A stretch of 64,000 bases of DNA, from IMG/VR virus record IMGVR_UViG_3300042542_005523, one strand, 5' to 3'. The notes under the pieces were generated by a model. The model had not been told where the DNA came from and searched no databases. It worked only from the letters and a program-made list of their open reading frames with translations. The stretch's first letter is position 1. Every line of letters begins with the position of its first letter. Positions 1-55,500 of this stretch are shown piece by piece. A program made the translations under genes and the position numbers. The DNA comes from a virus (Duplodnaviria > Caudoviricetes).

Positions 1-45
1 TCTGGGCAGATTGAAAACACACAGGTTAAAATCCTGTACTGATTA
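1..45 (+). ncRNA. 3' part of a degenerate tRNA-Leu-framed element (copy 0, cut by window start)
   Basis: acagg-ttaaaat-cctgt-actgatt-a (21-45) is a decayed version of the T-arm/acceptor 3' strand acagg-ttcgaat-cctgt-cctgact-a of the four downstream copies. Confidence 0.55.
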
Positions 46-210
46 CAAAAATAAAACCTCAACAAATAAAGTTGTGAGTTGTATTGAAATAGCCAATTAT
101 AAGCCAACATAAAGCTGTTGGGTGCAGATGGAGTAATTAACCAGGAGCGCAGGCACTGATTGTGACGGTACAACAAATACCCCTCTGAGTTTGGGTTTTA
201 TTTTAAATAT

Positions 211-308
211 AGTTAGGTGGCGGAATGGTAGACGCACAAGACGGGCGATGCATTTAAAACAGAAATAAGCCTGGTCGGTTTTTACAGGTTCGAATCCTGT
301 CCTGACTG
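211..308 (+). ncRNA. tRNA-like element, copy 1 (no canonical anticodon arm)
   Basis: Acceptor agttagg/cctgact, tRNA-Leu-type D arm tggcggaatggtagacgc, T arm acagg-ttcgaat-cctgt; the middle does not form a 5-bp stem with a 7-nt loop. Confidence 0.8.
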
Positions 309-321
309 CTAAAAGAAAGTT

Positions 322-564
322 ATGAATAAAATAGAGAATTACAATTTTGACAAAAATGATTGGGCACATTTCCATGATGTTATTTTAGATGTGACTTGGA
401 ATGATGGTAAAGTGAATCTAAATCAAAAAGAAATGGAACAATTATTTTGGGAGTTACCAGAAGATATGAGAATTGATGCTCAAAAATATGGTATGAATGA
501 TACACCTTGGAGAGATAGTCTGCGGGTATGGTATGAACGAAATAAAATGGGTAAGACTGTTTAA
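322..564 (+). CDS. hypothetical phage protein (80 aa) between tRNA-like copies 1 and 2
   Basis: Clean ORF with normal composition, same strand as flanking elements. Confidence 0.7.
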   Translation: MNKIENYNFDKNDWAHFHDVILDVTWNDGKVNLNQKEMEQLFWELPEDMRIDAQKYGMNDTPWRDSLRVWYERNKMGKTV

Positions 565-579
565 TTGGTTATAAAACAT

Positions 580-698
580 AGTCAGGTGGCGGAATTGGTA
601 GACGCTGCTGTGGGGCGACACCACTCTTTTAAAAACAGCATAAGCTCTTGCAATGATGTACACATTGCAAGGTACAGGTTCAAGTCCTGTCCTGACTA
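580..698 (+). ncRNA. tRNA-like element, copy 2
   Basis: agtcagg/cctgact acceptor, D and T arms as copy 1; tgctg/cagca stem closes a 25-nt loop; long extra hairpin cttgcaatg/cattgcaag. Confidence 0.8.
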
Positions 699-779
699 CT
701 CTGGGCTCAGTAAAGCCTCTTATCGTAAGATAACGTAACTGAAGTGGATAACCTAGAAATAGGTGACGCTCCACTATGG
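699..779 (+). ncRNA. candidate structured RNA between copies 2 and 3
   Basis: Hairpins gggct/agcct (703-718), ttatc-GTAA-gataa (720-733), agtgga/tccact enclosing accta-GAAA-taggt (743-775); two GNRA loops; no ORF. Confidence 0.45.
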
Positions 780-859
780 AGTCAGGTGGCGCAATTGGAA
801 AACGCAACTCGCGGTGTACACAGAGGAGTGAATTACAGGTTCGAGTCCTGTCCTGACTA
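780..859 (+). ncRNA. tRNA-like element, copy 3 (shortest insert)
   Basis: agtcagg/cctgact acceptor, D arm gcgcaattggaaaacgc, T arm acagg-ttcgagt-cctgt; actc/gagt stem with 15-nt loop. Confidence 0.75.
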
Positions 860-1065
860 CACGTTCCGACTAATCATCGGATAGTATGCCTCATACGATG
901 AGAAGTGGTGTGATAGCCACAGAGGAGAGTTGAAGGTTCGTATATACAAACCTTCCAGTTGACTACTGACGTCGGTAAAACCCTTCACGAGGGGAGCAAG
1001 ACAGTCTATTCCTAACTCAGCAATGAGGACAGCCATATCACCTGTAAGTTGGATAAATTAGGGTG
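860..1065 (+). ncRNA. candidate multi-hairpin ncRNA of unknown family
   Basis: GC-richer, ORF-free; hairpins at 866-880, 890-902, 905-920, 932-955, 981-994 and ctca-GCAA-tgag at 1016-1027. Confidence 0.55.
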
Positions 1066-1074
1066 TTTTTATAT

Positions 1075-1237
1075 AGTCAGGTGGCGGAATTGGTAGACGC
1101 TATCGTACTCAAGTAAGGCAAAGCAATGTAGATGAAACGTCGTCGCATGGTGAGTTAACACCTAAAAGTCTTTGGACTTGAAATCCAAAAAACCTTGAGT
1201 ATGTTCTACGATACAGGTTCGAATCCTGTCCTGACTA
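1075..1237 (+). ncRNA. tRNA-like element, copy 4 (about 110-nt structured insert)
   Basis: Same acceptor/D/T frame; insert closed by atcgta/tacgat and tactcaag/cttgagta, with inner hairpins ggtg/cacc and tttgga-cttgaaa-tccaaa. Confidence 0.8.
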
Positions 1238-1262
1238 CAAAAATTAAAATCTAAGGTAATAA

Positions 1263-1544
1263 ATGAAATGCTACGAATGTAAACACAGAGGAAATGTAAT
1301 AGGCTCAGCTCATAGCAGCTGTGGTGTTATCAGAAGCACAGGTAGTGAGAAGGGACAGGAGTTAGAATTCATGCTGGCGATGGGGCAGGTCGAAATGAAA
1401 GATCAAGATGGTAACCCTATTGTTGATATAGACCCTCATGGTATTCAAAACGGATGGGCTGCTTGGCCTATAGATTTCGATCCAGTTTGGATAAGATCCT
1501 GTAAATTCTATACAGAAAAAGAGAAAACAGGTGAATTGAAATAA
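1263..1544 (+). CDS. hypothetical Cys-rich (possible Zn-binding) phage protein
   Basis: CxxC at N-terminus, HSSC, GWAAWPIDFDP...C at C-terminus. Confidence 0.75.
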   Translation: MKCYECKHRGNVIGSAHSSCGVIRSTGSEKGQELEFMLAMGQVEMKDQDGNPIVDIDPHGIQNGWAAWPIDFDPVWIRSCKFYTEKEKTGELK

Positions 1545-1553
1545 ATAACATAT

Positions 1554-1627
1554 GCTACCGTGGTGTAACTGAATAACACGTCTAACTACGGATTAGAAGA
1601 GCGAGGGTTTGAATCCTTCCGGTAGTA
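1554..1627 (+). tRNA. tRNA-Arg(ACG)
   Basis: Acceptor gctaccg/cggtagt, anticodon arm tctaa-ctACGga-ttaga, T arm gaggg-tttgaat-ccttc. Confidence 0.92.
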
Positions 1628-1667
1628 CAAAAAATAATCGAAATTAGAAGAAACAAAAAGATGTTCT

Positions 1668-1676
1668 GATATATAA
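1668..1676 (+). promoter_or_regulatory. putative late promoter GATATATA(A/G) upstream of the leader ORF
   Basis: Same motif lies shortly upstream of eight other starts (see findings). Confidence 0.5.
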
Positions 1677-1685
1677 TAACATAAT

Positions 1686-1778
1686 ATGAAAAACTTGATC
1701 CATACATCCTTACATTTATCCACCACGAGTACCACTTGTGATTCGGATTTATTGTGGAGGAGGCTAATGGATCAATAA
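1686..1778 (+). CDS. putative attenuator leader peptide MKNLIHTSLHLSTTSTTCDSDLLWRRLMDQ
   Basis: 30-codon ORF; residues 6-23 use only H,T,S,L,C,D, the amino acids of the downstream tRNAs; contains GGAGGCT (1759-1765) complementary to the terminator 5' arm. Confidence 0.7.
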   Translation: MKNLIHTSLHLSTTSTTCDSDLLWRRLMDQ

Positions 1779-1800
1779 TAATATTGAATTTTGATTCTGA

Positions 1801-1830
1801 AAAAGCCTCCCCTAAAAAGGAGGCTTTTTT
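1801..1830 (+). terminator. intrinsic terminator / attenuator hairpin in front of the tRNA operon
   Basis: aaaagcctcc-cctaaaaa-ggaggctttt followed by a T-tract (1825-1830). Confidence 0.85.
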
Positions 1831-1860
1831 ATTGGCTCTTTGATTTATTAGATTTAACAC

Positions 1861-1944
1861 GGAAGAGGAATCACAGCGGCCTGTGAGCTAGTCTTGAAAA
1901 CTATGCGTACCTCCGGGTATTGGGATCGACACCTACCTCTTCCG
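1861..1944 (+). tRNA. tRNA-Ser(UGA), 8/4 fold with 6-bp D stem
   Basis: ggaagagg/cctcttcc (8 bp), D stem tcacag-cggc-ctgtga, loop ctTGAaa, long variable arm, T stem tggg/ccta (4 bp), G73. Confidence 0.85.
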
Positions 1945-1952
1945 CTTTTTCC

Positions 1953-2028
1953 GGGGCCTGTGGTGTAATGGCTTGCATAACACACTGTCACTGTGTAGGT
2001 CGGGGTTCGAATCCCCCAGGTCCCGCCA
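1953..2028 (+). tRNA. tRNA-Asp(GUC), apparent 8/4 fold, CCA encoded
   Basis: ggggcctg/caggtccc (8 bp), anticodon arm acaca-ctGTCac-tgtgt, T arm gggg-ttcgaat-cccc, G73-CCA. Confidence 0.92.
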
Positions 2029-3612: not shown

Positions 3613-4122
3613 ATGGAAAATCGACTTGACGGTAACTGGAGAAGACTAACAGATTCACAAGAAATTGAATTGCTGTCTTATATTAAATCCTGGATGGACG
3701 AAAATCCAGGACACAAGATCTATATTGGATGTGACTCCCAAAACAAGGGCAGATCTACAACTTATGCAACTGTCATAGTTCTACACTATCCTAGCGGTGG
3801 TGGACACGTCTTGTACAAAAAAGAGAAAATCGAAAAGGTGTCATCCAGTTTCGAGAGGCTCTGGAAAGAAGTAGAGCTTAGTGTGGAAATTGCTAATCTT
3901 TTAATAGATTCAGGTCTAGGTAAACCCGATTGCATAGACGTCGATCTAAATCCAGATCCGAGATACAACTCAAATCAATTACTAAGAGCAGCTGTTGGTC
4001 TTATAGAATCCATGGGGATTCAGGCTAGATATAAATCGAAATCGCCATGGGCTATTAGTATAGCTGACACTATGTGTAAAAGTAAGACGGGTAAGAAACC
4101 AAGAAAAAAACCAGTTAGATAA
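3613..4122 (+). CDS. RNase H-like YkuK family protein (DUF458)
   Basis: IYIGCDSQ...RLWKEVELS...IDVDLNPD...ADTMC pattern. Confidence 0.8.
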   Translation: MENRLDGNWRRLTDSQEIELLSYIKSWMDENPGHKIYIGCDSQNKGRSTTYATVIVLHYPSGGGHVLYKKEKIEKVSSSFERLWKEVELSVEIANLLIDSGLGKPDCIDVDLNPDPRYNSNQLLRAAVGLIESMGIQARYKSKSPWAISIADTMCKSKTGKKPRKKPVR

Positions 4123-4465: not shown

Positions 4466-5224
4466 ATGGCATATAGAATTCTTTTTCGTAGAGACACAGC
4501 AGCTAACTGGGCGACTAATAACCCTGTTTTATCTGCAGGTGAACCTGGATTTACAACAGACACAAACATATTTAAAATAGGAGATGGCGTTACCGCTTGG
4601 TCTTCCCTTCAGGATATAAATCCTGCAGGAGTAACCGGTCCAACTGGTGATGTTAATTTCGATAATATAGCATCCGACGTTATTGCTTCTGCCGATGCTA
4701 CTTATAATCTAGGAACTCAAACCTATCAATGGAATAACCTTTACGTTGCGGGCAGCATGTATCTTGGGGATTCCACTGTTACAGTATCTGGTTCTGGAAC
4801 TAATTTTATATTAGCAGGTGGAACAGGAAATCAGATAACTGGAAATCTTGAAATATCTGGTAATCTTACCGTAAACGGGACTACTAATATTAGACCGTAT
4901 AAGGTATATTCCGCTCTGGTTTCTCAGACGTCCTCTCTAGATCCAACAGATTTAGTTTTAGAAAGCACTTTCAATAGCACATTAACTTGGAACAGAGATT
5001 ACACGGGTAGATACACAGTTTCTTCTTCTACGGAGTTTACGATGGATAAGGTATTTGTGATGTTCTCACAGAATGCTGCTCTAGCCACTTCAACGACACC
5101 TTGTCATTATAATTGGCAGTGGTACGATTCAAGCACGCTGTATGTTGAATCTTTAAATGTTACGGGGGCTACAGCGGATAACCTTTTCTCTGCTACTTCG
5201 GTTGAGATTCGAGTTTATAATTAA
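4466..5224 (+). CDS. tail fibre-type protein with Mtd N-terminal domain
   Basis: ILFRRDTAANWATNNPVLSAGEPGFTTDTNIFKIGDGVTAW; short GVTGPTG collagen-like linker. Confidence 0.8.
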   Translation: MAYRILFRRDTAANWATNNPVLSAGEPGFTTDTNIFKIGDGVTAWSSLQDINPAGVTGPTGDVNFDNIASDVIASADATYNLGTQTYQWNNLYVAGSMYLGDSTVTVSGSGTNFILAGGTGNQITGNLEISGNLTVNGTTNIRPYKVYSALVSQTSSLDPTDLVLESTFNSTLTWNRDYTGRYTVSSSTEFTMDKVFVMFSQNAALATSTTPCHYNWQWYDSSTLYVESLNVTGATADNLFSATSVEIRVYN

Positions 5225-43527: not shown

Positions 43528-46500
43528 ATGCTTACGGATAACCTGTTTAGTGGAATTGTAGATTTTACCGACGGTAGCTTAAGCAGCTTAGTTGGTATCA
43601 CAGGTAGTGCGACATACGGGTCCAGTGTGATAACTGGAGTTGATAGCACGATCATACCTGGATTAACTGCTGGCCTTTCGGTTAGAGCACTACCAGAAGG
43701 AATTCTCAATCCCTCTACAACGATAGTTTCTTTGGGCTCTAACACGGTAGAGTTTTCTAACCCGGTAGGTTACACCGGATCCGCTAATTTTTATATAGAA
43801 CTAAGCAGCGGCAATTATCTTTTAAACAACGCTTTATTTGTTGACGTTAACAACATCTATAATGTTGGTGATATACCAGACTATCAAATAGGAGCCACTG
43901 GAGGATTGGTAATTTCTCCTTTTGCGATCTATACTCAGGGAAGATATAACGATCAGAAGAATCTTAAAGCCATATATGAAAAGTACATAATAACAAAAGT
44001 ACTTTCAAGGAACACAGTAACAAATAGATTTAGCGCTATAGTTACTTGGGGTTTTTCAGGATCTGCACCGACGAGTGTTAATACTGGACAGACAGTTCTA
44101 CCTATAACTCAGCTATCCCCGAATAATTTATTGCCTCCCATAATAGACTATAGAGCATTTTCTTATAAGAATCTTCCGGAAGGACAGCCATTTAATCAGG
44201 AGATATTAAAGGTCTTAGATTCTGGAGGAAGCGGAGGAAGCGGAGGAAGCGGAACTTCAGGAACAAGTGGTAGTTCAGGATCTTCAGGAACTTCAGGAAC
44301 AAGTGGTAGTTCAGGCACTAGCGGCACAGACGGTTCATCGGGAACTAGCGGTACAGATGGTTCAAGTGGAACTTCAGGAACTAGCGGTACGGATGGTTCA
44401 TCAGGAACTTCAGGAACATCAGGATCCAGTGGTTCTTCAGGTGAATCGGGTTCAAGTGGTTCATCAGGTGAATCGGGAACTTCAGGATCCAGTGGTTCAT
44501 CAGGTGAATCAGGTTCAAGTGGTTCTTCAGGTGAATCAGGAACTTCAGGAACTTCAGGATCGAGTGGAACATCGGGATCCAGTGGAACATCAGGTGAATC
44601 GGGATCCAGTGGAACATCAGGTGAATCAGGAACTTCAGGAACTTCAGGATCGAGTGGAACTTCGGGATCCAGTGGAACATCAGGTGAATCAGGAACAAGT
44701 GGTTCTTCAGGTGAATCAGGAACTTCAGGATCGAGTGGAACTTCGGGATCCAGTGGAACATCAGGTGAATCAGGAACAAGTGGTTCTTCAGGTGAATCAG
44801 GAACTTCAGGATCGAGTGGAACATCGGGATCCAGTGGAACATCAGGTGAATCAGGAACTTCAGGAACTTCAGGATCAAGTGGAACATCAGGATCCAGTGG
44901 TTCTTCAGGTGAATCGGGAACAAGTGGTTCTTCAGGGACATCTGGTTCAAGTGGTAGTGCGGGTTCATCTGGTTCAACGGGTACTTCAGGTTCTTCTGGA
45001 ACAGGAGGTTCATCAGGTAGCTCTGGTTCAAGTGGAAGTTCAGGTAGTACAGGTTCCTCAGGTTCAAGTGGTAGTTCAGGAACATCTGGCTCAACAGGTA
45101 CTTCAGGAACTTCAGGTTCAAGTGGGTCTTCAGGTAGTTCAGGAAGTAGCGGAACATCTGGTTCTAGTGGAAGTGTTGGAACTTCTGGTACATCAGGTTC
45201 ATCAGGTAGTGTAGGTACTAGTGGAACATCAGGTACATCAGGTACATCAGGTAGTGTAGGTACTAGTGGTACATCTGGTAGTTCAGGTTCTAGCGGTTCG
45301 TCAGGTAATAGTGGAAGTTCAGGTACAAGTGGAACATCAGGTACTTCTGGCTCTAGTGGAAGTGTTGGAACTTCTGGTACATCAGGAAGTTCAGGTTCTT
45401 CAGGTACTAGTGGTAGTTCTGGCTCTACTGGCACATCGGGTACTAGTGGCTCATCAGGAAGTGTAGGTACAAGTGGAAGTTCAGGTTCTAGCGGTTCATC
45501 AGGAAGTTCAGGTATTAGTGGTTCTTCAGGTTCTAGCGGAAGCGCTGGAAGCTCAGGAAGTACAGGTACATCAGGAACTAGTGGAACTTCAGGTAGTTCT
45601 GGTTCAGTAGGAACTTCAGGTACATCAGGTAGTTCTGGTTTATCGGGAAGCAGTGGTTCTTCAGGAAGTACTGGAACATCAGGAAGTACTGGAACTTCAG
45701 GTTCAAGTGGTAGTGTTGGGACTAGTGGTACATCGGGTTCAAGTGGTTCTTCAGGAAGTGTTGGTACGTCTGGTTCATCTGGAAGTGCAGGTACATCAGG
45801 AACTTCAGGGTCATCAGGAAGTTCAGGTACAAGCGGAACATCAGGAACTGGAGGAACTTCAGGTTCAAGTGGTAGTGTTGGGACTAGTGGTACATCAGGA
45901 ACAAGTGGTTCTTCAGGTACATCAGGTAGTTCAGGTTCAAGTGGTTCATCGGGAAGTTCAGGTTCAAGTGGTTCATCGGGTACATCAGGTAGTACTGGTA
46001 CTAGTGGTAGTAGTGGAACAAGCGGAACGTCGGGTTCATCAGGTTCTGCGGGAAGTAGTGGTTCATCAGGTAGTGTTGGAACATCTGGTTCAAGTGGTAG
46101 TTCAGGTAGTTATGGTTCATCAGGTACATCTGGCTCAAGTGGTAGCTCTGGTTCAACAGGTTCGTCAGGTAGTAGTGGTATAACTGGGTCTTCAGGTACG
46201 AGTGGTAGTTCTGGCACATCAGGTTCATCTGGTAGTTCAGGTTCTTCAGGTAGTACTGGTTCATCAGGAACTAGCGGAACATCAGGAACATCAGGTACAA
46301 GTGGTAGTTCAGGTTCTACAGGAACATCGGGTTCTACAGGAACATCGGGTTCATCAGGTAGTAGTGGCTCAAGTGGAAGTTCAGGATTGACAGGTTCATC
46401 AGGAACATCGGGTTCATCAGGGACATCGGGTTCATCAGGTAGTTCTGGTTCAAGTGGTAGTAGCGGAAGTACAGGGTCTTCGGGCACAAGTGGTAGTTCT

Positions 46501-49500
46501 GGTACATCAGGTTCATCAGGAAGTTCAGGTTCATCGGGTTCTAGCGGTAGTGTTGGAACTTCGGGAACAAGTGGTTCAAGTGGAAGTTCAGGTTCTTCAG
46601 GAAGTGTAGGAACATCAGGTACAAGTGGTAGTTCAGGTTCGTCTGGCTCAAGTGGAAATACAGGTTCAAGTGGAACGAGTGGTTCATCAGGTACATCTGG
46701 CTCAAGTGGTAGTTCAGGTTCGTCTGGCTCAAGTGGTTCAAGTGGAACGAGTGGTTCATCAGGTACATCTGGCTCAAGTGGTAGTTCAGGTTCGTCTGGC
46801 TCAAGTGGTTCAAGTGGAAGTTCAGGTTCTTCAGGAAGTGTAGGAACATCAGGTACAAGTGGTAGTTCAGGTTCTTCAGGTAGTTCAGGTGTTAATGGTT
46901 CTTCAGGGACTAGTGGTAGTTCGGGAACATCTGGTTCTTCAGGAAGTTCGGGTTCATCAGGTTCTAGTGGTAGTTCAGGAACATCTGGCTCAAGCGGGTC
47001 TTCTGGTTCAAGTGGAAGTACTGGTTCTTCAGGAAGTGCAGGTACATCGGGTAGTGTAGGAACTAGCGGTAGTTCTGGTTCATCTGGTTCTTCAGGTAGT
47101 ACTGGCTCAAGTGGTACTTCAGGTTCATCAGGTAGTGTAGGTACTAGTGGTTCATCAGGTAGTTCTGGTTCAAGTGGTAGTAGCGGAAGTACAGGGTCTT
47201 CTGGTACAAGTGGGAACTCAGGAACATCTGGTACAAGCGGAAGTACAGGGTCTTCTGGTACAAGCGGTTCATCAGGTAGTACTGGGTCAAGTGGAAGTTC
47301 AGGAAGTAGTGGTAGTGTAGGAACAAGTGGTTCTTCAGGGACATCTGGCTCAACAGGTACTTCAGGAACATCAGGTTCAAGTGGGTCTTCAGGTAGTTCG
47401 GGTTCATCAGGAAGTTCAGGTACAAGCGGAACATCAGGTTCAGTAGGAACAAGTGGTTCATCGGGAAGTTCAGGGTCAACAGGAACTTCAGGTTCAAGTG
47501 GGTCTTCAGGTAGTTCAGGAAGTAGCGGAACATCTGGTTCTAGTGGAAGTGTTGGAACTTCTGGCACATCAGGAACAAGTGGTTCATCGGGAAGTTCTGG
47601 TTCTGCCGGTACAAGTGGAAGTGTAGGAACAAGTGGTACTTCAGGTTCATCTGGCTCAAGTGGAAGTTCAGGTTCAACAGGTAGTTCAGGTACTAGCGGT
47701 TCATCTGGAAGTTCTGGTTCTGCAGGTACAAGTGGAAGTTCTGGTTCTTCAGGTAGTACGGGTTCAAGAGGAACTAGCGGAACATCAGGAAGTTCTGGTT
47801 CTGTTGGAACTAGTGGAACGTCTGGTTCAGTAGGAACTAGCGGAACATCTGGAACAAGTGGTTCATCAGGTTCTAGCGGTAGCGCTGGAAGCTCAGGAAG
47901 TGTAGGTACTTCAGGTACTAGTGGAAGCTCAGGAAGTGTAGGAACATCTGGTTCAAGTGGTACTACTGGTACCTCAGGAACATCAGGTAGTTCAGGTTCA
48001 TCTGGTAGTGTTGGTACATCAGGAACTTCGGGTACTAGCGGAACATCAGGTTCTAGCGGTTCGTCAGGAAATAGTGGAAGTTCAGGTACAAGTGGAACAT
48101 CGGGTTCAACTGGGTCTTCAGGCTCAAGTGGTAGTTCGGGAAGTGTTGGTACATCAGGAAGTAGTGGTTCTTCAGGTTCTAGTGGTAGTACTGGAAGCTC
48201 AGGAAGTACAGGTACATCGGGTTCAAGTGGAACTTCAGGTTCTTCAGGTACTAGCGGAACATCGGGAACTAGTGGTAGTTCAGGTTCAGTTGGTACATCA
48301 GGAACTTCGGGTTCAAGTGGTAGTTCTGGTTCTACTGGTACATCGGGTACTAGCGGTTCTTCAGGTTCTAGCGGTAGCGCTGGAAGCTCAGGAAGTACAG
48401 GTACATCAGGTACTAGTGGTAGTTCTGGTAGCGTAGGAACATCGGGTACATCAGGTAGTTCTGGTTCATCGGGTAGTTCTGGCTCAACAGGCTCGTCAGG
48501 TAGTAGTGGAACTTCTGGTTCATCTGGCTCAAGCGGAAGTGTTGGAACATCTGGTTCGTCAGGAAGTACTGGCTCAAGTGGTTCATCAGGAAGTACAGGA
48601 ACATCAGGTAGTGCTGGTTCTTCTGGCTCAAGTGGTAGTTCAGGTTCAAGTGGAAGTACTGGAACATCAGGTAGTAGTGGAACATCAGGTTCATCAGGTT
48701 CTAGCGGTAGTACTGGAAGCTCAGGAACGTCAGGTTCTGTAGGTACAAGCGGGACATCAGGAACTTCGGGAAGTACTGGTTCTAGTGGAAGTTCAGGAAC
48801 AAGTGGTTCATCTGGAAGTTCAGGGTCATCAGGAAGTACTGGTACATCAGGAACATCTGGTTCTTCAGGTAGTTCAGGTTCTAGCGGAAGTTCAGGTTCA
48901 AGTGGAACTAGTGGTAGTTCAGGAAGTTCTGGTTCATCGGGTAGTACAGGTTCTTCAGGTAGTTCAGGTTCTAGCGGAAGTTCAGGTTCAAGTGGAACTA
49001 GTGGTAGTTCAGGAAGTTCTGGTTCATCGGGTAGTACAGGTACTTCAGGAAGCTCAGGTTCAAGTGGAACTAGTGGTTCTTCAGGGTCTAGCGGTTCATC
49101 GGGTTCTAGTGGAAGTTCAGGGTCATCTGGTAGTACAGGTTCAAGAGGAACTAGCGGTTCTTCAGGAACATCAGGTACTAGTGGTACATCAGGAAGTGTT
49201 GGGACAAGTGGTACGTCAGGAAGTACTGGAACATCAGGTTCAAGTGGTAGTGTAGGTACATCGGGAACTTCAGGTTCATCTGGAAGTACGGGTAGTTCAG
49301 GTACTAGCGGTAGTAGTGGTTCATCAGGAAGTTCTGGCTCGACTGGTAGTTCAGGAAGTTCTGGAACTTCAGGTTCTAGTGGTAGTTCGGGAACATCAGG
49401 GTCATCAGGTAGCGTAGGTACTAGCGGTTCTTCTGGTTCAAGTGGAAGTTCAGGTTCTAGCGGAAGTACAGGGTCAAGCGGAACTAGTGGAAGTTCAGGT

Positions 49501-52500
49501 TCATCTGGAAGTGTAGGAACAAGTGGAACCTCAGGTTCAGTAGGTACAAGTGGTACATCAGGAAGTTCAGGCTCAAGTGGTAGTACGGGTTCATCTGGTA
49601 CTAGCGGCTCTTCGGGAAGTACTGGGTCATCTGGAAGTTCAGGTTCAACAGGAACTAGCGGTTCTTCAGGAACATCAGGTAGTAGCGGTTCTAGTGGTAG
49701 TGCTGGTAGTTCAGGTTCTGCGGGTACAAGTGGAAGTGTAGGAACATCTGGGACTTCTGGTTCAAGTGGGTCATCAGGTTCTAGTGGGAGTGTTGGAACT
49801 TCTGGTACATCAGGAACAAGTGGTTCGTCAGGTTCTAGCGGTAGTGCTGGAAGCTCAGGAAGTACTGGTTCATCAGGTTCTGCGGGAAGTGCTGGTACAT
49901 CAGGGGTTAATGGTTCTTCAGGAACATCAGGTTCTGCTGGCTCAAGTGGAAGTTCAGGTTCTTCAGGTAGTGTTGGTACTTCTGGTACAAGCGGAACTTC
50001 AGGTTCATCAGGTAGTGCTGGCTCGTCGGGGTCTAGCGGTTCTGTTGGTACTTCAGGTAGTAGTGGAACATCTGGAAGCTCTGGCTCAAGTGGTAGTGCG
50101 GGGTCATCAGGGAGTACTGGTACAAGTGGAAGTTCGGGTTCAACTGGTACTTCAGGTAGTTCAGGAACATCTGGTACTTCAGGTTCAAGTGGAAGTAGTG
50201 GCTCATCAGGTTCTTCAGGAAGTGCTGGTACAAGTGGAACATCTGGCTCATCAGGTTCAACGGGTAGTTCAGGAAGTGCTGGTACAAGTGGAACATCAGG
50301 TTCTAGTGGAAGTAGTGGTAGTTCAGGGTCATCTGGTTCTGCGGGTACATCAGGAAGTAGTGGAAGTACAGGTTCTTCTGGTTCAAGTGGGACATCAGGT
50401 TCAACGGGTAGTTCAGGAAGTAGTGGAACAAGTGGTTCATCTGGTACTTCAGGTTCATCTGGCTCAAGTGGTAGTACGGGTTCTTCAGGAAGCTCAGGCT
50501 CAAGCGGAAGTTCTGGTTCAACAGGTTCTAGAGGAACAAGTGGAACTTCTGGTTCGTCAGGAACTAGCGGAACGTCAGGAACATCTGGTTCATCAGGAAG
50601 TTCGGGTTCAAGTGGTTCGTCTGGGTCTACAGGAACAAGTGGTTCGGCTGGTACATCAGGAAGTAGTGGAAGTTCAGGGTCTAGTGGTAGTGCTGGAAGT
50701 TCAGGGTCTAGTGGTAGTGCTGGAAGTTCAGGTTCAGTAGGTACAAGTGGTTCTTCAGGAACATCAGGTTCTAGTGGGTCTTCAGGAAGTTCTGGTAGTT
50801 CAGGTTCAGCTGGTACAAGTGGAAGTGTAGGAACATCTGGTTCTTCAGGAAGTTCTGGTTCAAGTGGTTCATCAGGAAGTTCAGGTTCTACAGGTTCAAG
50901 AGGAACATCGGGTACTAGTGGTACATCAGGTAGTAGTGGTTCTAGTGGTAGTGCTGGTACTTCAGGTTCAGTAGGGACAAGTGGCTCTTCAGGAAGTGCT
51001 GGTAGTTCAGGTTCATCGGGTAGTAGCGGAACATCAGGTTCGTCAGGAACAAGTGGTTCGTCAGGGTCTAGCGGTAGTACTGGAAGTTCAGGAAGTTCTG
51101 GCTCTGTTGGTACATCAGGTAGTTCGGGGTCATCCGGAAGCTCAGGAAGTAGTGGTTCATCAGGTACATCGGGAGCTAACGGAAGTTCAGGAACATCTGG
51201 GTCTAGTGGAAGTTCAGGAAGTAGTGGTTCATCAGGCTCAAGTGGGTCTGCTGGTACTTCAGGTGCTAACGGAAGTTCAGGAACAAGTGGTTCGTCAGGT
51301 TCTAGCGGAAGTGCTGGAAGCTCAGGAAGTTCGGGAACATCAGGTAGTAGTGGTAGTTCAGGGTCCTCAGGGAGTACAGGTTCAAGAGGAACAAGCGGTT
51401 CTTCAGGTACATCAGGAACCTCAGGAAGTGCTGGTTCATCAGGTTCTTCAGGTTCAAGTGGAAGTGTAGGAACAAGTGGTAGTTCTGGTTCTGCGGGTTC
51501 TAGTGGAACTTCAGGTTCAACAGGAACATCAGGTAGTTCAGGTTCAAGTGGAGTAACTGGTTCTTCAGGTACTAGCGGTTCTTCAGGAAGTTCTGGGTCA
51601 TCAGGGTCTAGTGGAAGTGTTGGAACTAGCGGTTCATCTGGTACAAGTGGTTCATCAGGTAGTTCAGGAAGTTCGGGTTCAAGCGGTAGTAGTGGAAGTT
51701 CAGGGTCAACAGGTTCAAGAGGAACATCAGGAAGTACTGGTACAAGTGGTTCGGCTGGTACCTCAGGTTCAAGTGGAAGTTCAGGTAGTAGTGGATTAAG
51801 TGGTGTTGATGGTACTAATGGAACATCTGGAAGTTCTGGTTCAAGTGGTGTTAACGGAAGTTCAGGAAGTAGTGGTACATCTGGTTCTAGTGGAAGTTCT
51901 GGCTCTGCTGGTAGTTCAGGTTCTGCAGGTACAAGTGGAAGTGTTGGAACATCAGGTTCTTCAGGGAGTTCTGGTTCAAGTGGTTCTTCAGGAAGTTCTG
52001 GCTCAACAGGTTCAAGAGGAACAAGTGGTTCTTCAGGGACTTCAGGAAGTTCAGGTTCAAGTGGAAGTAGTGGAAGTTCAGGGTCATCAGGTGTTAGTGG
52101 TTCTTCAGGGACATCAGGTTCAAGTGGAAGTTCAGGTTCTTCTGGTTCAAGTGGAAGTTCAGGAACATCTGGCTCAACAGGAACTTCAGGGTCATCAGGT
52201 TCTAGTGGAAGTACTGGTACTTCAGGTAGTTCAGGAACATCAGGGTCTAGCGGTAGTTCGGGGTCATCTGGAAGCTCAGGAAGTAGTGGTTCATCAGGTA
52301 CATCGGGAGCTAACGGAAGTTCAGGTACAAGTGGTTCTTCAGGAAGTAGTGGTAGTTCAGGGTCATCTGGCTCTGCTGGTACATCAGGTGCTAATGGAAG
52401 TTCAGGAACATCTGGTTCAAGTGGTAGTGCTGGAAGCTCAGGAAGTAGTGGTAGTTCTGGTTCCGTTGGAACTTCAGGTTCTAGCGGTTCATCAGGAAGT

Positions 52501-55500
52501 GCTGGTACGAGTGGAAGTTCAGGAAGTAGTGGCTCATCAGGTTCTTCAGGAAGTACAGGTTCAAGAGGAACATCAGGTACTTCGGGAACATCAGGTACAT
52601 CAGGTGCCAATGGAAGTAGTGGAACATCAGGTAGTAGTGGTTCTAGCGGAAGTGCTGGAAGCTCAGGAAGTTCAGGTTCAACTGGAACATCTGGTTCTTC
52701 AGGAAGTAGTGGTTCTAGTGGTAGTTCAGGAAGTACAGGTTCTTCTGGTTCAAGTGGAACATCAGGTTCGTCAGGAAGTTCCGGCTCATCAGGATCAAGT
52801 GGGTCTGCTGGAACTTCAGGGGCTAACGGAAGTTCAGGAACAAGTGGTTCTTCAGGTTCTAGTGGTAGTGCTGGAAGCTCAGGAAGTTCTGGTACATCGG
52901 GTGCTAACGGAAGTTCAGGAACATCAGGTAGTAGTGGTTCTAGTGGAAGTGCTGGTTCATCAGGAAGTTCAGGTTCAACTGGTACATCTGGTTCTTCAGG
53001 AAGTAGTGGTTCTAGTGGAAGCGCTGGTTCATCAGGAAGTACAGGTTCAAGAGGAACATCAGGTACATCAGGAACATCAGGAAGTGCTGGTTCATCAGGT
53101 TCAAGTGGAAGTTCAGGAACATCAGGAGCTAACGGAAGTTCGGGAACATCCGGTACAAGTGGAAGTTCAGGTTCTTCGGGAAGTAGTGGTAGTTCTGGCT
53201 CTGCTGGTACATCAGGTGCTAATGGAAGTAGCGGAACATCAGGTAGCTCCGGTTCATCTGGCTCAAGTGGAAGTAGTGGTAGTTCAGGTTCATCAGGAAC
53301 AAGTGGGGCTAATGGAAGTTCAGGTACAAGTGGTAGTTCTGGAACATCGGGCTCAAGTGGGTCGTCAGGTAGTTCAGGCTCAAGTGGAAGTTCTGGAATT
53401 AACGGTTCATCAGGAACTTCAGGTTCAAGTGGTAGCACAGGGTCTAGTGGTAGTAGTGGTTCTTCAGGTAGTTCAGGAACATCAGGAAGTAGTGGGACAT
53501 CGGGAAGTTCTGGTTCAAGCGGAAGTTCTGGTTCATCAGGAAGCACAGGTTCAAGAGGAACAAGTGGTTCTTCAGGAACATCAGGAAGTGCTGGTTCATC
53601 AGGTTCAAGTGGTAGTACTGGAAGCTCGGGTACTTCTGGTTCATCAGGAAGTTCTGGCTCAAGCGGATTAACAGGTTCTTCAGGAACAAGCGGTTCGAGT
53701 GGTTCTTCAGGAAGTACAGGTTCTAGCGGAAGTGCTGGAAGCTCAGGAAGTTCAGGTACATCAGGTGCTAATGGAAGCAGTGGAACCTCTGGGTCAAGTG
53801 GTTCATCAGGAAGTGCTGGCTCATCAGGAAGTTCAGGTTCAACTGGTTCTTCGGGAAGTAGTGGTTCTAGTGGAAGCGCTGGTTCATCAGGAAGTACAGG
53901 TTCAAGAGGTACTAGTGGTACATCAGGGACATCAGGGACATCAGGAAGTGCTGGTTCATCAGGTACATCAGGTGCTAATGGAAGCAGTGGAACCTCTGGG
54001 TCAAGTGGTTCATCAGGAAGTGCTGGCTCATCAGGTTCAAGTGGAAGTTCAGGAACATCGGGAAGTGCTGGCTCATCAGGTTCTAGTGGAAGTTCAGGAA
54101 CATCAGGAACAAGTGGAAGTTCAGGTTCATCAGGAAGTTCTGGAATTACTGGTTCATCGGGAACTTCAGGTTCTAGCGGAAGTGCTGGCAGCTCAGGAAG
54201 TGGAGGTTCATCGGGAACATCAGGTTCTTCGGGAACAAGTGGAAGTGCTGGTTCATCAGGAAGTTCTGGAATTACTGGTTCATCAGGTACTTCTGGTTCA
54301 TCGGGTAGTTCAGGTTCAGCAGGAAGTTCAGGAACATCAGGTTCATCAGGAAGTGCAGGTTCAAGTGGGATATCAGGAAATGACTCTTCTAACTCAGGTA
54401 GATGGGGTTACGCATCAGGTGGAGGGGTTCCTGGTTCGGGAAGATTTAGCGCAAGTAGTTCGACACTTTCATCTGTAATTGGTTTTGCAGTTAATGACCT
54501 TGATATTAATTCTACCGATTACGATGAATGGTGGTTAACAGCTGAGGGGTTAGTATCTGGAGGAAATGGGATATACTTACAAGTAACTCAAGTAGGCAGT
54601 AATAATATAATAGGTCTTTATTCAGTTTCCGCGATAAATGATAATACCACATATTGGTCAATAACAGTTAAATTCATAGCTGGGAGTGGTTCTATGACCA
54701 ATGCCGAAAATTATACAATATCTTGGGTTTACAATGGTGCTGATGGTCCTTCTGGTTCAAGTGGAACATCAGGTTCAAGCGGAAGTTCTGGAAGTTCAGG
54801 CTCTAGTGGTATTGCTGGTAGTTCGGGAACATCTGGTTCTTCAGGTTCAAGCGGAAGTTCTGGAAGTTCAGGTTCAAGTGGTATTGCTGGTAGTTCGGGA
54901 ACATCTGGTTCTTCAGGAAGTAGTGGTTCTACAGGTTCAAGAGGAACTAGCGGTTCTTCAGGTTCAAGTGGAAGCTCAGGTTCAAGCGGTTCTACAGGTT
55001 CAAGAGGAACTAGCGGTTCTTCAGGTTCAAGTGGAACTAGCGGTTCTTCAGGTTCAAGTGGAAGCTCAGGTTCAAGCGGTTCTACAGGTTCAAGAGGAAC
55101 TAGTGGGACATCTGGAACATCAGGTTCATCTGGAACATCATCAACGGTTTATGTGGGTAATGCTAATGGTGCAGGTATTACTAATGGTGCTAGAGGTTCT
55201 ATTTATTTAGGGGGAACACCTGTTGCCATGGTTGCGGTTACCGCAGGTGATTACGGAGGTGGTGCAACTGATTTTATGCCAGGATACCCAATGCCTGCAG
55301 GAACTGCAAGTAAAATGAGAGTTATTACAAGAAGTGCCAATCCTGCTCTAAATAGTTTAGAGGTCTATGTTGCTAATGCTACTACATCAACATTAGGTGC
55401 TAAAGTTACAATAGCCGCTGGGTCAGCCGCAGGAGTTTACACTACAGATGACGGAACAACAGTTACGTACTCAGTTGGTGATAGATTATATTGTATTGCT

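Follow-up and report, generated by a model that had tools for sequence, protein, structure and literature searches.

What are the tRNA-like repeats that lie just ahead of the tRNA genes of a lake-water phage and have no anticodon arm? The window, that is, the whole 64-kb stretch of DNA that was analysed, holds four full copies (211-308, 580-698, 780-859 and 1075-1237) and one cut copy (1-45). All five are on the + strand, immediately 5' of seven canonical tRNA genes. The features of the region are as follows.

1-45, + strand: family member cut by the window edge, 3' part only (repeat families D3/D4)
46-210, + strand: ORF-free spacer from the cut copy to copy 2, with short overlapping ORFs only
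211-308, + strand: tRNA-shaped element, 98 nt (Rfam tRNA model, 37.3 bits, local end)
322-564, + strand: 80-aa ORF between copies 2 and 3 (ORF list)
580-698, + strand: tRNA-shaped element, 119 nt (Rfam tRNA 39.3 bits; whole-element z -2.5)
699-779, + strand: structured spacer, 81 nt, with GUAA- and GAAA-capped hairpins (z -2.0)
780-859, + strand: tRNA-shaped element, 80 nt (Rfam tRNA 43.5 bits)
860-1074, + strand: structured RNA of a conserved family, 215 nt, filling the gap between two elements
1075-1237, + strand: tRNA-shaped element, 163 nt (z -2.9; a 98% identical element occurs elsewhere)
1263-1544, + strand: 93-aa ORF separating the last element from the canonical tRNA genes (ORF list)
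1554-2448, + strand: seven canonical tRNA genes, for Arg, Asp, Ser, Thr, Cys, His and Leu-UAA (tRNA search)

A tRNA frame without an anticodon arm

The constant frame consists of the acceptor strands AGUCAGG and CCUGACU, U8, a Leu-type D arm, U48, the T arm ACAGG-UUCGAAU-CCUGU, A73 and an encoded C74; the DNA-encoded 3' end of family members reads CCTGACTA-CAA. Its two halves enclose an insert: 5' frame 211-236, insert 237-283 and 3' frame 284-308 in the second copy; 580-605, 606-673 and 674-698 in the third; 780-805, 806-834 and 835-859 in the fourth; 1075-1100, 1101-1212 and 1213-1237 in the last. Matches to a 21-nt 5' block occur at 585, 785 and 1080 and to a 24-nt 3' block at 284, 674, 835 and 1213, with none expected from 100 shuffles for either. 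A repeat search also recovers these repeats (families D3/D4 and D6), the cut copy being 78-83% identical to the remaining 3' blocks.

The sequence, minimum-energy folds and Rfam (RF00005) alignments together show the canonical features of a tRNA: a 7-bp acceptor stem, a D arm with GG, a T arm with a TTCRANY loop and a discriminator base. At minimum energy all four full copies form the acceptor, D and T arms, with the middle set apart. Copy 211-308 has G at position 73 and a U4-G69 wobble, and in 780-859 the D arm is a variant one (GCGCAATTGGAAAACGC). The cut copy carries the T arm ACAGG-TTAAAAT-CCTGT, the acceptor strand ACTGATT and A73. The original prediction, made from the sequence alone, had placed five copies at these positions, with constant blocks and no canonical anticodon arm, and this held. 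Its claim that the frame is constant in every copy held in part, as the D arm of 780-859 and the T loop and acceptor strand of 1-45 diverge. Its statement that only the first copy lacks A73 failed: the G73 copy is 211-308.

ARAGORN makes no call on any window copy. The Rfam tRNA model puts a local end where the anticodon arm belongs in 211-308, 580-698 and 780-859, and the scores of these three (37.3-43.5 bits, against a gathering threshold of 29) are reached solely by skipping the middle. In 1075-1237 its match is limited to 1149-1237, at 25.1 bits, below threshold. By both programs the window copies lack an anticodon stem of 5 bp carrying a 7-nt loop with U33 and a purine at 37. Among 214 elements gathered from viral contigs, anticodon-type hairpins number 10, against 7.9 +/- 2.6 in shuffled inserts, and a Leu anticodon in a normal loop next to a long variable arm was not found. 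The elements are non-decoding, and the anticodon arm is absent.

In its intron mode ARAGORN called 166 of the 214, but the proposed anticodons are scattered and unnatural, many with A34, and we discounted this reading. No Rfam intron family matched window positions 1-2000 or 15 family-rich loci.

A phage family with selected pairing and exchanged modules

The 3' block was found in more than 120 IMG/VR contigs, a lower bound. Extraction yielded 227 elements with the frame, 217 of them unique and 54-311 nt long; the 214 of at most 200 nt (54-191 nt) were analysed, and the three above 200 nt span two neighbouring elements. Most were collected by matching one 24-nt pattern exactly, and the frame looks uniform partly for that reason. 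An unbiased sample taken by the Leu-type D arm corrects for this: among its 113 matches are 49 non-canonical elements with the same acceptor, about 25 whose acceptor stems are different but compensated, and about 33 true tRNA-Leu. In viral contigs this D arm thus occurs in about 74 such elements against 33 real tRNA-Leu genes, and a large class of structured RNA therefore lies unannotated in phage tRNA islands, its genes being overlooked by tRNA finders and Rfam.

Arrays contain up to 10 copies, the family has more than 150 different inserts, and many elements directly adjoin ordinary tRNAs. A search of Rfam and the literature returned no family or paper describing these RNAs. By BLAST the family was not found in cultured phages, where only T-arm matches to ordinary tRNAs appear, and the uncultured 735-kb phage LR756501 has a 92% match to the 3' block. 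Bacterial genomes gave 21 exact matches, all on contigs of metagenome-assembled genomes; nine of them are Bacteroidota, possibly a hint of the host and a weak one. The RNAs form a family of more than 200 members in uncultured phages.

Their surroundings are those of tRNA genes. T precedes the element in 87% and C follows at +1 (position 74) in 96%; for 171 canonical tRNAs of the same loci the values are 68% and 98%. The strand is that of the nearest canonical tRNA in 100 of 100 elements, at a median distance of 242 nt, and all 115 within-locus family pairs are co-oriented. A scan for sigma-70 promoters and terminators was uninformative. Three metatranscriptome libraries contain contigs with both frame blocks flanking other inserts. 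Contigs of RNA library X17 match 24-167 and 143-235 without mismatch, and RNA-library contigs span 878-1059 and 879-1030; those of X17 and X19 do not extend over the neighbouring ORFs. This evidence consists of contigs only, and DNA carry-over is possible.

Pairing is under selection in both frame and insert. The same insert occurs in L103 with the acceptor AGTCAGG/CCTGACT and in L028 with AGTGAGG/CCTCACT, a compensated stem change, and the T stem alternates between ACAGG/CCTGT and GCAGG/CCTGC. Where both sides of a pair in a predicted insert helix have changed, pairing is kept in nine of nine cases, against 6 of 17 with slid partners; one-sided changes are retained no more often than in the control. 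Inserts of up to 140 nt are conserved, with compensated changes. Inserts are also more stable than their own shuffles (mean z -0.63, p 4e-14).

In the window, folding is statistically clear in 580-698 (z -2.5 for the whole, -3.0 for the insert) and 1075-1237 (-2.9 and -3.1), and no better than in shuffles for 211-308 and 780-859. The idea that every insert folds on itself therefore held only in part. Insert 606-673 forms a small hairpin and a 9-bp hairpin, the longer of which has two compensated pairs in a homologue of its element (L153); a second candidate relative, L191:91-210, was rejected as not homologous. Insert 1101-1212 is a closed multi-hairpin domain.

No motif is common to the inserts: the most enriched 5-mer occurs in just 29 of 171, and GTAAG, GGTAA and TGTAA are in modest excess. 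A few members have the insert in the D loop. No known RNA family was recognised in inserts or spacers by Rfam (positions 1-2000 at E up to 5, and 15 family-rich loci). An exact 19-nt piece of the 780-859 insert had no match in an IMG/VR search, and the 80-aa ORF at 322-564 has no Pfam family and no homologue among the fetched loci. As regards a guide or antisense role, complementarity of at least 13 nt to inserts or spacers is absent elsewhere in the window, which is a partial genome. The sole exception is one 18-nt match at chance level.

Two spacers are themselves structured and conserved. Spacer 699-779 is 90-93% conserved in L103 and L113, flanked there by elements with other inserts. The 860-1074 family is conserved in six loci (L130, L098, L074, L054, L085 and L208); 17 of its 38 predicted pairs still pair after two-sided changes, and at E values up to 5 no Rfam model matches it. 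Both spacers start directly after position 73 of one element and stop a few bases before the next.

BLAST alignments stop at the frame edges (673-805, 832-1082 and 835-1100). Similar inserts form 57 cross-contig pairs; in about 43 of them the 200-nt flanks are unrelated, even where the inserts are 91-100% identical. An element 98% identical to 1075-1237, for example, lies between unrelated flanks in L065 and L237. In the unrelated-flank pairs the frames differ by 5.6% and the inserts by 3.7% (p 0.08, merely suggestive). Because homology breaks at the frame edges, inserts and spacers act as exchangeable modules. This mosaic exchange is shown; that it proceeds through the frame halves rests on the mosaic patterns only.

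The survey of neighbouring ORFs was limited to 2.5 kb around the elements. Among its ten most recurrent clusters are an HNH endonuclease, DUF932 and a metallophosphatase, but no integrase; no recombinase dedicated to the array appeared among the clusters examined. HNH endonuclease genes lie within the arrays of eight loci. No ORF cluster near the elements recurs in more than 12 loci as a partner protein would, and an Mtd_N protein was not accompanied by the template and variable repeat pair of a diversity-generating retroelement.

The original prediction had also argued that the elements are not decayed tRNAs but a family of phage RNAs, and intact frames, compensated stems, flanks and co-orientation support it. 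Two outcomes that would have refuted it did not arise: splicing out the inserts leaves no normal anticodon loop, and the relatives show no random decay of acceptor or T arms.

Leucine identity, a proposed explanation and its rivals

The leucine identity of E. coli tRNA rests on A73, A15-U48, G18G19 and A20a, and tRNA-Leu without anticodon and variable arms remains chargeable (PMC9976931). The compact Leu-type D arm is present in three of the four window copies and in 122 of the 214 members; of these 214, A73 is found in 196 and U48 in 186. Copies 580-698 and 1075-1237 have the full set of A73, A14, A15-U48, G18G19, A20a and a Leu-type D loop; the deviations in the window are G73 in 211-308 and the variant D loop in 780-859. 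With the E. coli set preserved in most copies, charging is possible though undemonstrated. The argument from leucine identity made in the original prediction agrees with the published rules, yet the compact D arm is found only in those 122. Leucine identity is not family-defining, because 87 of the 214 members have other D arms with unchanged acceptor and T arms. The T-stem pairs A49-U65 and A51-U63 are linked to weak EF-Tu binding; we dropped them as a sign of it, each being present in about one quarter of the canonical tRNAs here.

The reading we favour, with moderate confidence, is that the elements are non-decoding RNAs on a frame derived from tRNA-Leu and matured like tRNAs; charging, maturation and the role of the insert are undemonstrated. 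A phage tRNA-Leu would be the source of the frame, its anticodon and variable region having been swapped for a folded insert specific to each member. The frame would then allow the RNA to be excised from the transcript of the phage tRNA operon and completed as tRNAs are, by RNase P at the 5' end followed by 3' trimming and CCA completion, and would promote L-shape folding and persistence. This route and the stability of the RNA are inferred, as there are no data on RNA ends, added CCA or stability. Because the frame halves (25-26 nt) are nearly identical in many phages, they may double as homology arms through which co-infecting phages swap inserts and structured spacers. The inserts would be the working parts, again by inference; that they are host-interaction or counter-defence RNAs is possible and is our guess.

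On a bolder reading, which we can only call possible, the frame serves phages as the universal adaptor for a system of RNA cassettes. About 50 nt of frame would give any structured RNA tRNA-type processing and stability, and recombination over the short homology of its two near-constant halves would let co-infecting phages of the lake trade inserts and spacers. Phages would share a library of well over 150 modules, most of them probably devoted to RNA-based host takeover or counter-defence and many leucylatable. If the elements are indeed a natural scaffold and exchange adaptor, evolution arrived at the laboratory tRNA-scaffold design. They would then offer hundreds of compact, naturally selected RNA folds for tests against protein and RNA targets, and a concrete system in which to study the sharing of non-coding modules among phages. 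Charging with leucine, should it apply to many members, would make them a novel class of aminoacyl-RNAs without a decoding role.

Of the four options first put forward, the tRNA-framed carrier fits best; processing punctuation held in part, in that elements exactly bound the conserved structured RNAs at 699-779 and 860-1074, and so did recombination sites, as short homology arms, with no recombinase found in the clusters examined. Were punctuation all, the elements would be processing signals that free spacer RNAs or ORF transcripts, with inserts as stuffer. The two element-bounded spacers and the RNA-library contigs over 878-1059 speak for this. Acceptor and T arms would suffice for it, yet D arm, U48 and compensated inserts are retained, and adjoining ordinary tRNAs could already serve as signals; we consider it improbable. 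Equally doubtful is a family of leucine carriers or sinks, charged by LeuRS, which would feed a non-ribosomal reaction or tie up LeuRS, EF-Tu and leucine while the insert merely keeps the RNA off the ribosome. The frequencies of the Leu-type D arm, A73 and U48 and the E. coli identity rules favour it. It leaves unexplained more than 150 inserts, their 91-100% identity across contexts and their compensated helices, and no aminoacyl-transferase is among the recurrent neighbours.

A counter-defence role as decoys, in which the tRNA top half lures host nucleases or sensors that target tRNA and the altered lower half resists cleavage, or in which inserts mimic the targets or antitoxin RNAs of defence systems, is likewise unlikely. 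In its favour, phage tRNA clusters are counter-defence loci kept in flux by homing endonucleases (PMC13096335), HNH genes lie inside the arrays of eight loci, and extreme insert diversity with horizontal exchange is consistent with an arms race. Against it, no insert matches a known RNA family and a simple decoy would not require a variable insert. Less likely still are selfish repeats, tRNA-derived elements spread by mobility or recombination without benefit to the phage. Near-identical elements in unrelated flanks and arrays of up to 10 copies fit them; the elements are never reversed (100/100 and 115/115), sit inside tRNA operons with tRNA processing flanks, and have no recurrent adjoining transposase or integrase. 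Decayed or intron-bearing tRNA genes are all but ruled out. They would account for the tRNA-Leu ancestry, and tRNAs of some other viral contigs (L062 and L057) do carry 40-90-nt inserts in otherwise normal anticodon loops. The frames of the family are nevertheless intact and compensated in hundreds of copies, an anticodon stem is absent on both sides of the insert, no Rfam intron matches, and elements of 80-90 nt are too short for an intron, an anticodon and a variable arm.

Relation to known RNAs and arrays

The species 1 and 2 RNAs of phage T4 (rnaC and rnaD) are likewise small RNAs on the tRNA strand of a phage tRNA cluster. They are stable RNAs without known function, at the end of the cluster and adjoining a homing endonuclease gene. 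The 3' end of rnaC is a T arm followed by an acceptor-like strand. Unlike the family, rnaC lacks a D arm and its acceptor stem is imperfect (17.5 bits against tRNA-Sec); rnaD has no T arm. The Rfam tRNA model matches neither, and no sequence or architecture is shared with the family. Both T4 RNAs are single fixed sequences, whereas the family is multi-copy, with a constant frame and variable inserts.

The bacterial tRNA mimics Skipping-rope, DUF2693-FD and salivarius-1 resemble the family in that the upper half and the elbow of a tRNA carry a variable extension in place of the anticodon arm, and they are processed and stable RNAs. They are bacterial single genes that reach the L shape by a different connectivity, whereas the family has a true tRNA-Leu cloverleaf frame and phage arrays. 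Their Rfam models matched neither the window at gathering score, nor positions 1-2000 at E up to 5, nor, again at gathering score, the 15 family-rich loci.

The engineered tRNA scaffold of Ponchon and Dardel (PMC3753655) has the same design, with acceptor, D and T arms, a structured RNA for the anticodon arm, and tRNA-like processing and stability. It is a laboratory construct; the family is natural, with hundreds of inserts, some in the D loop. Plant mitochondrial t-elements (PMC1920247) are also tRNA-like, and there RNase P and RNase Z set the ends of neighbouring RNAs, much as the spacer RNAs are delimited here. The t-elements are by-products without conserved cargo, whereas the inserts of the family are conserved and compensated. 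As in integron cassette arrays, modules are mobile between genomes and the structured sites (attC in integrons) have conserved ends and variable middles. In contrast to integrons, there is no attC consensus and no integrase among the neighbour clusters examined, the modules are RNAs instead of genes, and exchange would use the homology of 25-nt frame halves.

Finally, tmRNA also combines a tRNA-like domain with a large stretch inserted between its acceptor strands. It lacks the D stem, has alanine identity through G3-U70, and contains pseudoknots and a reading frame for the tag. In the family this pair is U3-A70 and the D arm is complete, and the tmRNA model (RF00023) finds no match in positions 1-2000 at E up to 5. 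Some phages of the same kind encode tmRNA itself (L184).

Elements at the start of the window

Four complete tRNA-shaped RNA genes, in which a constant tRNA-Leu-derived frame holds an insert in place of the anticodon arm, lie in the window together with the 3' end of one more.

1-45, + strand: 3' end of a fifth element (sequence reading of 1-2400)
211-308, + strand: complete element, AGTTAGG start, base G at 308, middle 47 nt
580-698, + strand: complete element, middle 68 nt
780-859, + strand: complete element, middle 29 nt
1075-1237, + strand: complete element, 163 nt, middle 112 nt
1554-2448: seven ordinary tRNAs (ARAGORN)

The complete elements start with AGTCAGG (with the variant noted for 211-308) and TG, followed by a bacterial tRNA-Leu-type D arm. 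They end with ACAGG-TTCRART-CCTGT, CCTGACT and one base, which is A in the other three. Their middles are mutually unrelated in sequence. The 5' block matches the window three times and the 3' block four times, shuffled sequence gives no match, and a repeat search returns the same families. ARAGORN calls no window element as a tRNA. The Rfam tRNA model scores 37-43 bits on three elements, skipping the anticodon arm as a local end (15, 58 or 40 nt), and aligns only the 3' part of 1075-1237 (25 bits). In the minimum-energy folds of all four, the acceptor, D and T arms form and the middle folds apart from them. The array put forward in the original prediction thus held, with small corrections, on sequence, folds, Rfam alignment and block matches.

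The window sequence is present in 16 lake or freshwater metagenome runs. Besides phage-type replication genes and many sugar-modifying enzymes, this sequence (37% G+C) encodes a 4015-aa repeat protein (43528-55575); most of that protein is built from repeats whose period is 9 nt, or three residues, so that it is possibly collagen-like. The protein at 4466-5224 has an Mtd_N domain (tropism determinant of diversity-generating retroelements); the window shows no detectable pair of template and variable repeats. An RNase H-like protein lies at 3613-4122 (Pfam PF04308, E 4e-22); five other viral loci (L112, L167, L162, L025 and L173) have homologues beside tRNA arrays.

A tRNA-Leu-derived family without an anticodon arm

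More than 120 IMG/VR contigs, as a lower bound, contain the 24-nt 3' block, with up to six copies in one contig stretch. Joining every 3' block to the closest 5' block upstream yielded 227 elements, 217 of them unique; three reach 259-311 nt because each spans two adjoining elements. All later counts refer to the remaining 214, which cover 54-191 nt with no gap in the length range. Since this sample was selected through the frame itself, we took a second one using the D arm alone, GGTGGCGGAATTGGTAGACGC, present in any bacterial-type tRNA-Leu. Among its 113 matches, the AGTCAGG acceptor is present in 55, of which 49 are non-canonical, about 25 further non-canonical ones have other acceptor stems, and about 33 are ordinary tRNA-Leu. 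The family was not found in cultured phages. Its 21 exact matches among 185,579 species genomes are all on metagenome-assembled-genome contigs, 9 of them Bacteroidota.

The frame is derived from tRNA-Leu and selected for pairing and for tertiary-contact bases. A generic acceptor and T-arm scan found stems other than AGTCAGG to be fully paired (GGACAGG/CCTGTCC, AGCAAGG/CCTTGCT, GCTTTGG/CCAAAGC, GAAGGGG/CCCCTTC and more): the stem is therefore maintained through compensating changes. One insert occurs with two acceptors, AGTCAGG/CCTGACT and AGTGAGG/CCTCACT, in contigs L103 and L028. Five members (L163, L075, L178, L184 and L209; 107-182 nt) have an extra D-loop hairpin between GCGGAA and GGTAGACGC, on top of the anticodon-region insert; as this site is solvent-exposed, the L shape appears to be the constraint.

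The anticodon arm has been lost in the family. Anticodon-type hairpins (5-bp stem, 7-nt loop, U33, purine 37) number 10 in the 214 elements, against 7.9 +/- 2.6 in shuffled middles. With introns forced allowed, ARAGORN proposes anticodons of every kind, many starting with A. We rejected intron-bearing tRNAs: elements of 80-90 nt have the normal size of a tRNA-Leu and still lack an anticodon stem, so that an intron has no room. Random tRNA decay was also rejected, as it would not leave the frames intact in every copy. On that ground the earlier claim of an RNA family rather than decayed tRNAs held; one finding that would have refuted it, inserts that are tRNA introns leaving normal anticodon loops, was not borne out by hairpin counts and lengths.

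The elements have tRNA-type flanks and are members of tRNA operons. T precedes position 1 in 87% and C follows position 73 in 96%, before an A-rich run; of 171 canonical tRNAs in the same loci, 68% have the T at -1 and 98% the C at +1. That C74 is encoded but the full CCA is not agrees with trimming of the 3' end and subsequent CCA completion. All 100 elements whose locus has a canonical tRNA share its strand (median distance 242 nt), all 115 element pairs within one locus are co-oriented, and tRNA islands of 20-30 genes contain arrays of up to ten elements. Contigs with 5' and 3' blocks enclosing other inserts occur in three metatranscriptome libraries. In two of these libraries (X17, X19) the neighbouring ORF regions 401-500 and 1301-2000 are uncovered, which argues for RNA over carried-over DNA; the contigs show neither ends nor strand.

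Inserts and spacers

Of the 214 inserts, 158 resemble no other and the remainder form 24 small clusters; we found no common motif and no Rfam match. Taken together, the inserts are more stably folded than their dinucleotide shuffles (mean z -0.63, p 4e-14), and the 68-nt and 112-nt window inserts reach z of about -3. The inserts are conserved and compensated. Within the L149/L121/L153 cluster, a helix reads GTTGAA/TTCAAC or GAGCAA/TTGCTC around a fixed loop, and two pairs are compensated between the long hairpin of 580-698 and L153. When the structure predicted from one member alone was applied to relatives, double changes kept the pair in 9/9 cases, against 6/17 with a slid partner (one-sided hypergeometric p about 0.002); one-sided changes in insert helices did no better than this control.

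Inserts and spacers have a mosaic distribution. Among 57 pairs of similar inserts across contigs, about 43 are unrelated in the 200 nt to either side of the insert-bearing element, even at 91-100% insert identity (for example L121/L149, L123/L125, L179/L188 and window/L065). Conversely, L103, L113, L130, L098 and L074 share the spacers 699-779 and 860-1074 at 87-93% conservation, and L054, L085 and L208 share them partially, next to differing inserts; BLAST alignments end at frame edges (673-805, 832-1082, 835-1100).

Spacer 860-1074 is a 215-nt ORF-free RNA filling the gap between two elements, without an Rfam match. In its homologues (L130, L098, L074, L054, L085, L208) conservation is seen in the 5' and 3' parts, around a variable centre; 17 of 38 predicted pairs have changed on both sides and still pair. 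The RNA is always immediately preceded by a family element, and is followed by a tRNA or a tRNA-like element. Two freshwater RNA libraries contain short contigs over 878-1059 and 879-1030. The 81-nt spacer 699-779 has GUAA- and GAAA-capped hairpins (z -2.0) and is 90-93% conserved in L103 and L113, where the flanking elements' inserts are different. A recurring ...ATCTACTCAC..GGAATCTCAGGTGGGGCAATAT, possibly another conserved spacer module, immediately precedes family elements in several contigs, metatranscriptome contigs included (L065:1766-1825).

Proposed mechanism, rivals and related RNAs

In the mechanism we infer, each element would be released by RNase P and 3' processing, the L-shaped frame would stabilise the RNA and display the insert, and the insert would be the working part. 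The simplest account of the exchange would be recombination inside the two near-identical 25-26-nt frame halves, which would also hold frames uniform between phages. For the same insert in unrelated flanks, frames differ no less than inserts do (5.6% against 3.7%, p 0.08); crossovers near the insert would give this pattern, which is no more than suggestive. HNH endonuclease genes, found inside tRNA or tRNA-like arrays at 8 loci (including L130:3534-4196), could provide the DNA breaks. T-even phages are an example of a tRNA cluster that is reshaped by a homing endonuclease when defence exerts pressure (PMC13096335). Within the 2.5 kb around the elements, no recurrent recombinase or other partner protein was found; for the idea that they are recombination sites, mosaic breaks at frame edges were thus seen without such a recombinase.

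That the elements are pure processing punctuation is unlikely, as it leaves the conserved inserts unexplained; selfish spreading repeats are less likely still, since neither strict orientation nor tRNA flanks would follow. Leucine charging remains possible. In E. coli, leucine identity rests on A73, A15-U48, G18G19 and A20a, and a tRNA-Leu stripped of both its anticodon arm and its variable arm still accepts leucine (PMC9976931). The leucine-identity argument of the original prediction fits these rules, but 87/214 members combine a different D arm with the same acceptor and T arms; for this reason we regard charging as a possible trait of many members, not as the family's reason for existing.

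The family belongs to the tRNA-like non-coding RNAs; its size, array organisation and exchangeable inserts are new, and the literature searched holds no description of it, exact frame sequence included. T4 rnaC and rnaD lie in the same kind of genomic place, but all that rnaC retains is a T arm with an imperfect acceptor stem, rnaD retains neither, and the tRNA model matches neither RNA. The bacterial tRNA mimics skipping-rope, DUF2693-FD and salivarius-1 retain the upper half of a tRNA and differ in the lower half (preprint, October 2026); their connectivity is unlike that of the elements, and their Rfam models give no match here. The closest design is the engineered tRNA scaffold (PMC3753655).

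Contigs L062 (949-1073, 9495-9620, 9679-9805 (-)) and L057 (5416-5571 (-)) encode otherwise normal tRNAs (e.g. Leu, Tyr) with anticodon-loop hairpin inserts of 40-90 nt, below group I intron size; one tRNA-Leu would read CUUAAAA once the insert is removed. Such small inserts in the tRNAs of huge phages may form a class of their own. Phage-encoded tmRNA occurs in the same RNA islands (L184:5724-6218, Rfam 68.5 bits; L037; L162), and for L037 and L162 ARAGORN predicts tags ending AVAA.
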